64,000 bases of DNA from Rhodospirillales bacterium (GTDB lineage Bacteria; Pseudomonadota; Alphaproteobacteria; Rhodospirillales; UBA2165). The DNA lies in the NCBI GenBank assembly GCA_022823235.1, contig JAJDXO010000022.1, forward strand, positions 61,955 through 125,954, written 5' to 3'. Of the stretch, positions 58,088 through 64,000 are shown piece after piece; the first letter of the stretch is position 1; every line of letters begins with the position of its first letter. The position numbers and the translations under genes were made by a program. Below the pieces are notes generated by a model. That model saw only the letters and a program-made list of their open reading frames with translations, had not been told where the DNA came from and made no database searches.

Positions 58088-58407
58088 CCCCCTCACCCCA
58101 AAGTGTCGTCATACCCCGGCGCAAGTCCGGGGTATCCACATTTCCAATTCCTGAACCACAGAGACGGTGAGACAGTGAGGGGCACCGCTCCCGCCCCAAA
58201 GCGTCATGGCCGGGCAAGGACCCGGCCTTCAGTCGGCCGAAGCCGACTTTCGGACGGCGTAGGCCGGCCATCCACGTGTACCGGGGGCCGCTAGGCATGG
58301 ATGCCCGGATCAAGTCCGGGCATGACGATAGCATAACAATTATCGCGTCATGGCCGGGCCCAGACCCGGCCATCCACGTGGTGATGACGGCTTGCGGGTG
58401 AGGGGGG
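58088..58407. repeat. cluster of GC-rich REP-like hairpin elements (at least four units) between dnaG and yqeY
   Basis: Hairpins at 58111-58135, 58208-58227, 58231-58248, 58301-58323 and 58353-58372. The units GCGTCATGGCCGGGC..CCCGGCCATCCACGTG recur. The block is bracketed by inverted CCCCCTCACCC (58088) and GGGTGAGGGGG (58396). Confidence 0.7.
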
Positions 58408-58420
58408 AGGAGAGAGGCCC

Positions 58421-59195: not shown

Positions 59196-60401
59196 ATGCC
59201 GCCCGCCGACGGCCACGCCGCGCCCCGAGGAAGCGGCGCGCCCACCAGCACAAGTCCGCCCCCCGGACCGCCCGATGGGGCCGATGCGGCATTGGTTCTT
59301 TCCGACGGCACGGTGTTCTGGGGAACCGGCCTCGGCGCCGAGACCTCCAACGTCGGCGAGGTGTGCTTCAACACCTCGATCACCGGTTATCAGGAAATCC
59401 TCACCGATCCCTCCTACGCCGGGCAGATCATCACCTTCACCTTCCCCCATATCGGCAACGTGGGCACCAACCCGGAAGACATCGAGACCGTGACCCCGGC
59501 GGCCCGGGGCTGCGTGCTCCGCGCCGGCATCACCGGGCCCGCCAACTTCCGGGCGACCCGTCATCTGGACGAGTGGCTCAAGTCCCACGGCCTCCCCGGC
59601 ATCGCCGGGATCGATACCCGGGCGCTGACCCGCAAGATCCGGGAGTCGGGCTTCATCAACGGCACGGTGGTGAACGGCGGAGACTTGGACGTGGCGGCGG
59701 CGCTCGCCGAAGCCCGGGCGTGGCCCGGCCTCGACGGCATGGACCTCGCCAAGACCGTCACCTGCGGCCAGACCTACCGGTGGGAGGAGGGCACCTGGGC
59801 GCTGGGCCGGGGCTACGGCGCCCTGGACAAGCCCGATCATCACGTGGTCGCCGTCGATTTCGGCGCCAAGCGCAACATCCTCCGCTGCCTCGCCGCCGCC
59901 GGGTGCCGCGTCACGGTGGTGCCGGCGACCGCCACCGCCGAGGACGTATTGGGCCACGAGCCGGACGGGGTGTTCCTCTCCAACGGCCCGGGCGATCCGG
60001 CGGCCACCGGCGACTACGCGGTGCCCATGATTAAGGATGTCGTGGCCTCGGGCACGCCGGTGTTCGGCATCTGCCTCGGCCATCAGATGCTGGCGCTTTC
60101 ATTGGGATGCAGGACGGAGAAAATGCATCACGGCCACCGGGGCGCCAATCACCCGGTGAAGGACCTGGAAACCGGCGGCGTCGAGATCACCAGCCAGAAC
60201 CACGGCTTCGTGGTGGTGCGGGATTCGCTCCCCGACGGCGTGGTCGAGACCCACACGTCCCTGTTCGACGGCACCATTGAAGGCATCCGCCTCGACGGCA
60301 GGCCCGTATTCAGCGTCCAGCATCACCCGGAAGCCTCGCCCGGCCCCCAGGACAGCCACCACCTCTTCGACCGGTTCGTGAAGATGATGGACTCCAAGTG
60401 A
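59196..60401 (+). CDS. carA: carbamoyl-phosphate synthase small (glutamine amidotransferase) subunit CarA
   Basis: ALVLSDGTVFWG..GEVCFNTSITGYQEILTDPSYAGQIITFTFPHIGNVGTN, plus the GATase triad context GICLGHQMLA and HHPEASPGP. The 30-aa Pro/Gly/Ala-rich N-terminal extension from the ATG at 59196 is doubtful. An in-frame TTG sits just before VLSDGTVF. Confidence 0.9.
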   Translation: MPPADGHAAPRGSGAPTSTSPPPGPPDGADAALVLSDGTVFWGTGLGAETSNVGEVCFNTSITGYQEILTDPSYAGQIITFTFPHIGNVGTNPEDIETVTPAARGCVLRAGITGPANFRATRHLDEWLKSHGLPGIAGIDTRALTRKIRESGFINGTVVNGGDLDVAAALAEARAWPGLDGMDLAKTVTCGQTYRWEEGTWALGRGYGALDKPDHHVVAVDFGAKRNILRCLAAAGCRVTVVPATATAEDVLGHEPDGVFLSNGPGDPAATGDYAVPMIKDVVASGTPVFGICLGHQMLALSLGCRTEKMHHGHRGANHPVKDLETGGVEITSQNHGFVVVRDSLPDGVVETHTSLFDGTIEGIRLDGRPVFSVQHHPEASPGPQDSHHLFDRFVKMMDSK

Positions 60402-60423
60402 CTCACCACGGAGCACACCGAAG

Positions 60424-60461
60424 CCCCCCACCCCATCCCTCCCCCGCAAGGGGGGAGGGGG
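60424..60461. repeat. 38-nt GC-rich hairpin element, left copy (CCCCCCACCCCATCCCTCCCCCGCAAGGGGGGAGGGGG)
   Basis: Identical to 60898-60935. It contains the hairpin CCCTCCCCC-GCAA-GGGGGGAGGG. A 21-nt inverted partial copy lies at 60484-60504. Confidence 0.8.
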
Positions 60462-60520
60462 TGTTGGTTCGCGGCAATAATCACCTCCCCCCTTGCGGGG
60501 GAGGTCGAGGCGTTCGGCGG

Positions 60521-60874
60521 TCAGCCGGACGCCGAGGGTGGGGGGAAAGCGCGCAGCGCGGATTGAATTTCGGCGATCACCCCGTCGGTCCTTTCCAGCA
60601 CGTCGCTATTCCAGAAGCGGATGACCCGGAAGTCCTGGCTTCCGAGCCACGCCGTACGCGCAGCATCAGCGGCCGCATGGGCGTCATGTTGTCCGCCATC
60701 CACTTCGACGATCAGCCGCGCTTCGTAACACAAGAAGTCGACGACGTATGGACCCAAAGGCACCTGACGGCGAAATCTGTGACCGTCGACTTGGCGGCGG
60801 CGCAAACGGGACCAAAGGCGTTGCTCCGCGTCCGTCGGGTTTCTTCGCAGCTTGCGGGCGTTCTTGTTGGCCAT
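60521..60874 (-). CDS. DUF559 (Vsr/restriction-endonuclease-like) domain protein
   Basis: Start at MANKNARKLRRNPTDAEQRLWSRLRRRQ. The sequence continues FRRQVPLGPYVVDFLCYEARLIVEVDGGQH..RFWNSDV, which is the classic DUF559 pattern. Confidence 0.8.
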   Translation of the reverse strand: MANKNARKLRRNPTDAEQRLWSRLRRRQVDGHRFRRQVPLGPYVVDFLCYEARLIVEVDGGQHDAHAAADAARTAWLGSQDFRVIRFWNSDVLERTDGVIAEIQSALRAFPPPSASG

Positions 60875-60897
60875 GCTTCCAGGATAGACGAATTGGA

Positions 60898-60935
60898 CCC
60901 CCCACCCCATCCCTCCCCCGCAAGGGGGGAGGGGG
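60898..60935. repeat. 38-nt GC-rich hairpin element, right copy
   Basis: A 38/38 match to 60424-60461 in direct orientation. The two copies flank the DUF559 gene. Confidence 0.8.
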
Positions 60936-61090
60936 ATAGTCCTTCTCACTGCCTCATTGCCTCTGTGGTTCAAAAAATCCTCCGTGATCTCCGTGTTCCC
61001 GGTGGCGAATCCCGAATCCCGGGCTATATCAACTAATGTTCGTCTTCAGCGGGGGTTTTGCCGGACGGGAAATGTCCGAAAAGGCGGCCG

Positions 61091-61130
61091 AATGTCCATA
61101 AATGTCCATGAATGTCCATGAATGTCCATT
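61091..61130. repeat. four tandem copies of a 10-bp unit AATGTCCAT(A/G/T), plus a degenerate fifth copy at 61071-61079
   Basis: AATGTCCATA AATGTCCATG AATGTCCATG AATGTCCATT were read directly. The array ends 53 nt upstream of the carB ATG. Confidence 0.85.
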
Positions 61131-61182
61131 GCACGAAAACGCCCAAAATCGCCTTGTTGGAATCCAATTCTGATGGAATTTG

Positions 61183-64000
<2,818 letters not shown>

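Follow-up and report, generated by a model that had tools for sequence, protein, structure and literature searches.

What has come to lie between carA and carB, the genes for the two chains of carbamoyl-phosphate synthase, in a 64,000-nt stretch of a Rhodospirillales bacterium (GenBank assembly GCA_022823235.1, contig JAJDXO010000022.1, positions 61,955–125,954; hereinafter the window)? The spacer holds an opposed gene coding for a small protein of the DUF559 family, accompanied by copies of a 38-nt repeat. An earlier reading of the bare sequence (hereinafter the original prediction) placed the end of carA at 60401, the start of carB at 61183 and the DUF559 gene at 60521–60874, all of which hold, and likened the two direct copies of the repeat around the gene to the footprint of a small selfish or mobile cassette, or of a hairpin-targeting nuclease placed among its own recognition sites. 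Here, we find that the 560-bp segment 60419–60978 is indeed an insertion of a minimal nuclease cassette, and that its design, an open reading frame (ORF) between inverted repeat units, recurs at DUF559 loci of many bacterial phyla. On balance, we lean toward regarding it as a selfish cassette of minimal size, with a Vsr-like nuclease that acts on the structured ends of the cassette itself. The features of the locus are as follows:

59196..60401, + strand: carA (carbamoyl-phosphate synthase small chain; PF00988 + PF00117, E ~1e-50), the left host flank, outside the cassette
60419..60978, no strand: insertion, 560 bp, replaced by 18 nt in the relative L083
60424..60461, + strand: unit U1, an extra unit with the BoxC/TM-type triplex motif; third block 60424–60433, linker CAT, hairpin 60437–60459
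60484..60545, − strand: unit U2, the 3′-end unit of the cassette, split; hairpin 60484–60504, insert 60505–60535, third block 60536–60545
60521..60874, − strand: DUF559 ORF, 117 aa (PF04480, E=7.5e-41)
60898..60935, + strand: unit U3, the 5′-end unit of the cassette, identical to U1 and in the same orientation
61183..64000, + strand: carB (large chain, extending past the end of the window), the right host flank; its leader, 60979–61182, is common to L083

An insertion with an empty site in the nearest relative

The closest relative of the window, a metagenome contig (L083) with a carA product 92% identical in amino acids and flanks 93–95% identical in nucleotides, provides the empty site: its BLAST blocks stop at window position 60418 and resume at 60979, leaving 18 nt opposite 560 bp, and a separate alignment agrees. 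No remnant of a repeat unit is present in this empty site. Among carA relatives with a visible carB, most carA-carB spacers measure −5 to +20 nt. The comparison of these spacers among relatives, which the original prediction had proposed as a check, turned up both empty and occupied sites, and its proposal of an inserted small cassette is upheld by the empty site in L083 and by the short spacers of most carA relatives.

The 38-mer CCCCCCACCCCATCCCTCCCCCGCAAGGGGGGAGGGGG is present in exactly two copies in 64 kb, at 60424–60461 and 60898–60935, identical at 38/38 positions with 0 mismatches as originally described, where 0 are expected by chance (100 shuffles). Its 21-nt core has three copies, the middle one inverted (60484–60504), and no further copy within 3 mismatches elsewhere across the 64-kb window. 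These direct repeats are not a target duplication, because the units of relatives are inverted and the empty site is devoid of a unit. The notion that they bracket the insertion as its footprint accordingly has to be given up: the family-wide design is an inverted unit pair, to which the window adds one extra unit. The layout is unchanged in a strain variant 98% identical to the window (L001); an ENA metagenome scaffold (L002) is identical to the window.

The 38-nt repeat is a three-block unit

Read on its G strand, the window unit is CCCTCCCCC-loop-GGGGGAGGG-N3-GGGTGGGGG, with CTTGC as the loop and ATG as the linker. The 13-nt 5′ part (CCCCCCACCC+CAT), earlier described as non-palindromic, is the third block of a three-block motif, and across the 3-nt linker this block mirrors the purine arm in 9/9 triads. 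The unit has the succession of C-rich pyrimidine arm, 3–6-nt loop, complementary purine arm, 3-nt loop and mirrored G-rich block that defines the BoxC/PIT/TM elements. It fails the literal TM-ECO pattern, CCCTCNCCC N3-6 GGGNGAGGG N3 GGGNGAGGG (Holder et al. 2015, PMC4666352), at one position, with a third-block G where the pattern has A, because it possesses one A/T position per block and not two (GGGGGAGGG / GGGTGGGGG). Judged by its sequence, the window 38-mer is a variant of the BoxC/PIT/TM intrastrand-triplex motif class, hence a member of a published class and not the private hairpin that had been envisaged. Hoyne & Maher 2000 is reportedly also a source for this class. The portrayal of each copy as a GC-rich hairpin caught one part of the three-block motif, and the single hairpins fold no better than composition-matched shuffles (z −0.4 to −1.0).

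The published E. coli unit folds in vitro into a hairpin/intrastrand triplex, as seen for that unit by circular dichroism (CD) and nuclear magnetic resonance (NMR); 23 TM-ECO copies were counted in E. coli K-12 and 3610 in 262 proteobacterial genomes, TM loci are unusually variable among E. coli strains, and BoxC-type elements displayed no promoter or terminator activity in published tests (PMC4666352). According to the same survey, the first description of BoxC is credited to Bergler et al. 1992, the envM sequence paper; its authors state that mobility functions were never found near the motifs, and DUF559 is absent from their text, while their own table lists ycjD as the neighbor of one unit (PMC4666352).

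As in its relatives, the DUF559 gene of the window is flanked by inverted units, at 60484–60545 (U2) and 60898–60935 (U3), with 60424–60461 (U1) being the extra unit; U1 stands in the orientation of U3, which accounts for the direct repeats seen at first. The 21-nt inverted copy at 60484–60504 was correct as to position and inversion but is not partial: it belongs to a whole unit split by a 31-nt insert, as traced through the inverted repeats I1, I2, I10, and I12, with hairpin and third block 31 nt apart. The third block of U2 (GGGTGGGGGG, 60536–60545; CCCCCCACCC on the gene strand) falls within the last codons of the ORF and encodes PPP, and U3, which in gene orientation reads hairpin-ATG-GGGGTGGGGGG, ends 23 nt upstream of the start codon. 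Pairing of 60438–60458 with 60484–60504, that is, U1 with U2, yields a 21-bp inverted repeat downstream of both convergent genes, carA and DUF559, that folds better than shuffles (z −4.3). On the + strand, a lenient terminator scan accepts the U1 hairpin together with GTGTTGGTTC, a weak resemblance, and Rfam returned only sub-threshold microRNA-like matches to the long hairpin. The loop of the inverted hairpin differs between the window and L001 (TTGC vs TCGC).

The unit consensus among DUF559 loci is CCC(C/T)(C/T)(A/C)CCC, a 3-nt linker (TAA, CAA, CGA, TGA, CAG, TAG, and others) and a 9-bp hairpin. Mirroring of the third block (G for G, A/T for A) reaches 81% in the register of the 3-nt linker vs 7–26% in other registers, and 126 of the 176 units are fully triad-compatible. 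A G-quadruplex pattern also fits the G strand of 120/176 units; we favor the triplex description, in view of the register-specific mirroring and the published CD/NMR data; the two are not separable in silico. Small palindromic inserts containing GAACGCC lie exactly between third block and hairpin both in the window (60505–60535) and in L173 (3900–3990), and breaks or insertions seem to recur at the 3-nt linker.

A compact cassette shared by DUF559 loci of many phyla

To place the window in context, we used 80 genomic loci with relatives of the window protein, chosen by similarity to it, from Alpha-, Beta-, Gamma-, and Deltaproteobacteria, Chloroflexi, Nitrospirae, Dadabacteria, Dormibacterota, Terriglobia, and Bacteroidota. 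Counted over 81 DUF559 loci, perfect-stem C-first hairpins number 82 within 150 nt upstream of DUF559 and 74 at −45 to +150 nt of its stop codon, as against 85 in the remaining ~1.25 Mb, an enrichment of units at the gene ends of ~80-fold. This strong association of the repeat with DUF559 genes is the opposite of a ubiquitous repetitive extragenic palindrome (REP) with no preference for them, which the original prediction had named as the outcome against itself. The units are also oriented. Of the nearest upstream units (67 relatives), 46 are 'rc' (hairpin outwards, G block to the gene) and 6 'fwd', and the nearest downstream unit is the mirror image ('fwd' at 33 loci, 'rc' at 5). At the 37 loci with both ends the outer hairpin edges are 393–546 bp apart (median 424), and at 21 of them the 7-nt stem core is the same at both ends (3.8 expected by permutation).

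The canonical cassette, of ~420 bp, consists of a hairpin, linker and G-rich block, a short leader, the DUF559 ORF, and a C-rich block, linker and hairpin. Its ends are terminal inverted repeats of ~36–38 nt, each a BoxC/PIT/TM unit by its three-block make-up, with a 9-bp C-first hairpin. The ORF runs into the right end: it typically closes with PPP and then a stop codon that serves as the linker of the 3′ unit (CCCCCCACCC-TAA/TAG/TGA-hairpin), or it reads through the unit (PSPxxGEG tails). In homologs 60–74% identical, odd tails (PPPRPSPARGEG or LPLKGGG, for example) and N-terminal extensions (MGWG, for example) are explained by their being translated from similar GC-rich elements.

Two copies in one Dehalococcoidia metagenome-assembled genome (L029 and L042) are 93.7% identical over 411 nt with unrelated flanks, and their homology sets in where the upstream unit begins on its outer side; the two copies in L079 share 91.5% identity. 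ORF-less rc>fwd unit doublets of ~100 bp, and arrays, are found away from any DUF559 gene. In Azospirillum lipoferum 4B the same arrangement sits between a tripartite ATP-independent periplasmic (TRAP) transporter and nirK. An independent 510-kb sample chosen via carA contains 13 strict units, of which 10 are beside DUF559 and 2 more lie in carA-carB spacers cut by contig ends. Taken together, the cassette is established as a discrete module, one nuclease gene between structured inverted repeats; lineages gain and lose it, it appears to be copied within genomes, and its design is kept from phylum to phylum.

Tandem arrays of alternating units with a period of ~70–125 nt were seen in Dehalococcoidia and SAR202 genomes, both adjoining and away from their DUF559 genes (L038 5300–6460 and 8800–11760; L010 10330–10700 and 14890–15200). 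We also considered the linker type as a marker of 5′ and 3′ ends, by which the published type A + type B pairs of E. coli might have been explained; the linker classes are mixed at both ends (27/14 vs 24/20), and the idea was dropped.

A Vsr-like nuclease under purifying selection

The window protein matches PF04480 with 138.9 bits (cut-off 20.6) over residues 3–107 of 117. It has the fold of the Vsr-like PD-(D/E)XK nucleases, the closest solved structure being an uncharacterised protein of N. gonorrhoeae (PDB 3HRL, E=5e-38) and the closest characterised relative the homing endonuclease I-Bth0305I (PDB 3R3P, E=1.4e-3). D46, E57, D59, and H63, which make up a Vsr-like active site, are invariant in 32 aligned sequences, the window protein included. 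Among Pfam profiles the protein matched only DUF559 and, below threshold, MTES_1575, and not the Vsr family; its score against the NCBIfam equivalog PRK09767 (YcjD), 108.9, is below the cut-off of 218, which indicates that it is not a YcjD ortholog. An in-frame ATG in the linker of U3 (60910) would give a 129-aa form; public records annotate this start, which is why a look-up of the exact 117-aa product found no entry.

With ratios of nonsynonymous to synonymous substitution rates (dN/dS) of 0.06–0.4 among relatives, the protein is under purifying selection. The ORFs of the window and L001 differ by 3 nucleotides, all non-synonymous C/T transitions (S/N, R/K, A/T), with 0 synonymous differences.

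The cassette encodes no known transposase class, DUF559 being its sole ORF. The window protein is not a member of Y1_Tnp (HUH, IS200-like), the transposase family of the REP-associated tyrosine transposases (RAYTs), to whose genes the flanking geometry is similar. There is no C5-cytosine methyltransferase neighbor, the neighbors being carA and carB, and no family of the PADLOC defense models matched at E<=0.01.

The carA-carB junction as a landing site

DUF559 cassettes occupy carA-carB spacers in at least 4 places or clades of the carA tree, in both orientations and among empty sites. The three closest long-contig relatives of the window protein (68–74% identity) all lie in this spacer, 2 co-oriented with carA and 1 opposed. 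A rough protein tree places the proteins from carA-carB spacers in two groups plus several singletons, interspersed with those of cassettes elsewhere; the DUF559 lineage of the window is tied to the carA-carB spacer. The identities of DUF559 and carA to the window (72/72, 68/71, and 71/65%) are similar yet partly incongruent (L176 71/65, L005 60/73), so that old residence with inversion or loss and repeated arrival do not separate cleanly.

In 4 of the 17 occupied loci, 20–40 nt of the carB 5′ end are duplicated beside the insert, in diverged form and on the carA side, which shows that the insert entered carB at its start and that the gene was restored. These diverged copies of the first carB codons (ATGCCNAAGCGNACNGACAT...) were seen on the carA side of L174 (4392–4420 region), L120 (5143–5170), L068, and L011; that of L174 overlaps the carA stop codon, as in genomes with overlapping carA and carB. 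L134, L143, and L144 have lost the 3′ unit, and there DUF559 abuts carB with its ORF intact; solo units lie in the carA-carB spacers of L104 and L131.

The same site harbors other small genes. At the identical carA-carB site, L099, L105, and L107 possess intact cassettes of a small PD-(D/E)XK protein of the GxxExxY family (TIGR04256, E=7e-42). Like the DUF559 cassette, these comprise a small nuclease gene (~125 aa) between inverted repeats at the same site; unlike it, they belong to another protein family and, at these loci, have another repeat sequence (CCACAGAG-type). Two stretches around the window's DUF559 cassette resemble their ends:

60402..60423, + strand: relic left inverted repeat of the GxxExxY cassette type (AACCACAGAGACACAGAGG-like), directly after the carA stop codon
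60945..60970, + strand: relic right inverted repeat of the GxxExxY cassette type (CTCACTGCCTCATTGCCTCTGTGGTT), aligned to the right ends of L107, L105, and L099

The left stretch (60402–60423) aligns with the left ends of the GxxExxY cassettes of L099, L105, and L107, and with L083; a further partial right-repeat copy at 60981–61005 is common to L083, and TRF reports a period-8 array at 60945–60963. To go by these alignments, the relic CCACAGAG-type inverted repeats around the DUF559 cassette are the ends of an older cassette of a different type. The carA-carB junction is thereby a place where small selfish genes of several kinds have landed time and again.

Further inhabitants of the spacer include a RelE/ParE-like toxin with its antitoxin (L112, 2318–2877) and long unrelated palindromes (L125, L137, L161). 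Upstream of carB by ~55–110 nt, the window has 4 tandem copies of GAATGTCCAT (61090–61129), plus AAATGTCC at 61070. The GAATGTCCAT repeats are kept, with changes, in the empty-site L083 and are thus part of the ancestral carB leader, which, being common to L083, lies outside the insert; they may be candidate regulator binding sites. A second non-homologous replacement between these close relatives affects the dnaG-yqeY spacer (window 58093–58418 vs L083 2902–3222), where L083 has a BoxC/TM unit and C-rich blocks, and the window has other palindromes (GTCATGGCCGGGC...GCCCGGCCATCCACGTG, 2–3 copies) and a AACCACAGAGAC motif.

The E. coli repeats and ycjD

In E. coli the DUF559 gene ycjD lies between sapF and fabI (envM). 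Its product ends with SPSP* in the C-block CCCTCTCCCTGA, and a complete BoxC unit follows downstream. In K-12 (NC_000913.3, 1351030–1351410; L172) the truncated 3′ end of a second DUF559 gene (GGAGACGGTGCTGGAGAATATTC...) is found downstream of ycjD, and then the BoxC unit. We detected ycjD in 3378 of 5426 complete E. coli genomes; in a spread sample, genomes with the ycjD locus have 12–26 unit matches and those without it 1–15. Published TM counts are 19–30 in phylogroups A, B1, and C, 1–2 in B2 strains, which lack ycjD, and 11 in O157:H7 (PMC4666352), and in phylogroups A, B1, and C ycjD takes the place of the eefRABCD efflux operon (PMC12817139). This distribution fits, as weak evidence when taken alone, a dependence of the repeats on ycjD.

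A probable selfish cassette and its alternatives

How might such a cassette persist and spread? In the mechanism that we propose, the DUF559 protein would recognize the structured units and nick or cut at or near them; host recombination and replication would then repair the break, copying the cassette or ORF-less unit pairs to new or empty sites, in a life cycle that would be homing-like or akin to that of insertion sequences (ISs) and miniature inverted-repeat transposable elements (MITEs), with no strand-transfer enzyme. The idea in the original prediction of a nuclease lodged among its own recognition sites is thus plausible. A bolder version, which we put forward tentatively and hold to be rather less probable than the selfish cassette as such, is that DUF559 proteins are the missing cognate nucleases of the BoxC/PIT/TM repeats. 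The two together would then form an unrecognised class of minimal (~0.42 kb) autonomous mobile elements, whose sole protein, of the Vsr-like PD-(D/E)XK type, would recognize non-B-DNA (hairpin/triplex) ends; solo units and doublets would be their MITE-like offspring, and their activity would explain the repeat-linked instability.

A number of points weigh against a self-acting selfish cassette. The window copy is itself damaged, its 3′ unit being broken, and with this split unit and the extra unit beyond it the copy may no longer be mobile, its intact ORF notwithstanding. We know of no DUF559 protein that binds or cuts a BoxC/TM-type unit. A hydrolytic nuclease alone cannot perform strand transfer, which renders the copying step hypothetical, and since empty carA-carB sites usually have no unit, the first arrivals cannot be put down to homing into units already present. 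We found no two copies at different loci that were near-identical (>98%); P0067, considered as a case of recent mobility, was rejected, its 22 contigs all being one locus in many samples. Relative to unrelated pairings, no excess of fixed-length target-site duplications, nor of outer inverted repeats, was seen in the 30 nt beyond the ends of 37 cassettes. Plasmids seldom carry the gene (24 records, the majority chromids), and phages do not carry it at all. In the carA-carB clade the divergence of DUF559 is about that of carA (72/72, 68/71, 71/65%), a pattern that vertical residence over long periods, with losses, could produce. In E. coli the correlation runs along phylogroups and is worth 1–2 independent contrasts, and O157 strains devoid of ycjD still hold 11–12 units. 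Finally, the loci, being chosen by similarity to the window protein, are no sample of DUF559 at large.

Some of these points are shared with the main rival account, in which DUF559 is a host-retained, essentially immobile nuclease, domesticated in the manner of a RAYT, that acts in trans on dispersed BoxC/TM units, by maintaining, spreading or processing them, or that resolves the replication blocks due to them, the carA-carB copy being an old resident inverted via its units and lost in some lineages. The single ycjD of E. coli, with no intact ends and with 19–30 dispersed units, speaks for it; the similar rates of divergence of DUF559 and carA in the carA-carB clade, the low dN/dS, the intact ORFs of L134, L143, and L144 despite the loss of their 3′ units, and the capacity of inverted units to flip a gene all agree with it. 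We nonetheless consider it unlikely: in the 64-kb window and the 510 kb selected via carA almost all units are at DUF559 genes and not dispersed, the module is tight (~424 bp) with an ORF ending inside a unit, same-genome copies are bounded at units, the empty site of the nearest relative retains no unit remnant, and the 4–6-nt spacers of most relatives would need many precise losses. Less probable still is a free-standing homing endonuclease that targets the conserved carA/carB junction and is spread by recombination of the flanks, with units that are incidental or regulatory. The residence of the three closest long-contig relatives (68–74% identity) and many others in carA-carB spacers, the fold related to I-Bth0305I, the duplicated carB 5′ ends beside some inserts and the partial incongruence of DUF559 and carA identities (L176 71/65, L005 60/73) would suit such an enzyme. 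It would not account for both orientations within one clade or for cassettes with the same units at unrelated loci (Azospirillum TRAP-nirK, E. coli fabI-sapF, most of L003–L082); further, the 110-aa DUF559 protein has no counterpart to the extra DNA-binding domain of I-Bth0305I, and the unrelated GxxExxY gene and toxin-antitoxin pair in the same spacer suggest that it is maybe simply insert-tolerant.

The units might alternatively be cis-acting expression signals, their hairpins serving the DUF559 gene and its neighbors by ending transcription, stabilising mRNA or binding ribosomes and playing no part in DNA mobility. A lenient terminator scan does accept U1 with its T-rich tail downstream of carA, U1 pairs with U2 in a strong hairpin where the two genes converge, and in many relatives the G block stands 2–8 nt before the ATG in the manner of a Shine-Dalgarno sequence. 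We regard this as quite improbable, since T tracts are missing from most units, the published tests saw no promoter or terminator activity, and the mirrored third block, the inverted and co-varying ends, the ORF-less doublets and arrays and the insertion polymorphism would all be left unexplained. That a common GC-rich REP merely happens to neighbor a small gene in a junk-tolerant spacer is scarcely credible: BoxC/TM units are a widespread repeat class, and the carA-carB and nearby dnaG-yqeY spacers do gather assorted palindromes, but chance would have to produce the ~80-fold enrichment, the orientation rule, the stop codons inside units, and the placement of 12/13 units of the independent sample at DUF559 or carA-carB sites, with no other copies in 64 kb. 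The selfish cassette with a nuclease acting on its own ends is hence the reading that we prefer.

Relationship to known systems and implications

The repeat class and the protein family are each already known; their association and the resulting cassette were not found described, with no report in the searchable literature, a search that left subscription journals mostly outside. With the published BoxC/PIT/TM-ECO elements the units share the three-block design and an intergenic occurrence, singly or as inverted pairs, at strain-variable loci, and the E. coli unit beside ycjD/fabI belongs to the family; the difference is that here the units are the inverted ends of a gene cassette; the published work found no associated protein or mobility function. 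The parallel with REP/REPIN and RAYT (Y1 HUH) systems is extensive: structured palindromic units stand as inverted copies on either side of a single nuclease gene, the unit sequence varies along with the gene copy, further units lie elsewhere, alone or as inverted doublets, and E. coli has one gene beside tens of units. However, DUF559 is a Vsr-like PD-(D/E)XK hydrolase and not an HUH tyrosine transposase, its units have a third, mirrored block, and it is often multi-copy, across phyla, with most units at the gene itself in many genomes.

Like ISs and their MITEs, the cassette has ~36–38-nt terminal inverted repeats (the 3′ repeat being split in the window), an ORF whose 3′ end falls within the right end, derivatives that keep these ends but have no ORF, loci polymorphic for presence or absence, and same-genome copies bounded by the ends. 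Unlike them, it measures ~0.42 kb, far below any known autonomous IS, and has no DDE, HUH, serine or tyrosine recombinase and no regular target-site duplication. The Vsr-like EDxHD homing endonucleases (I-Bth0305I, 3R3P), free-standing or intron-borne, are comparable in their distantly related catalytic fold, a small selfish-looking gene placed between conserved ones and occupied/empty alleles; DUF559 differs in that it is found without an intron or intein, has no separate DNA-binding domain, and has a gene with its own inverted repeats at many different loci. As for the Vsr repair endonuclease, DUF559 shares the PD-(D/E)XK/Vsr superfamily fold and is often annotated 'very-short-patch-repair endonuclease'; yet it has no Vsr Pfam match and no adjacent cytosine methyltransferase, and its context is another.

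The small nucleases of the very large DUF559 family have a solved structure (3HRL) and no assigned function, and BoxC/PIT/TM is a repeat known since 1992 that forms a triplex in vitro and marks unstable E. coli loci. A single small protein and a single 38-nt oligonucleotide would suffice for a direct test of the link between them, and a ready genetic system exists in E. coli K-12, with ycjD and 23 units. If the nuclease acts on the ends, the cassette would amount to a system for mobility or repeat maintenance that works with a hydrolytic PD-(D/E)XK nuclease on non-B DNA, unlike all transposase classes, and would be a possible source of a compact structure-specific DNA nickase. Two orphans, the DUF559 nuclease family and the BoxC/PIT/TM repeats, would then explain each other.

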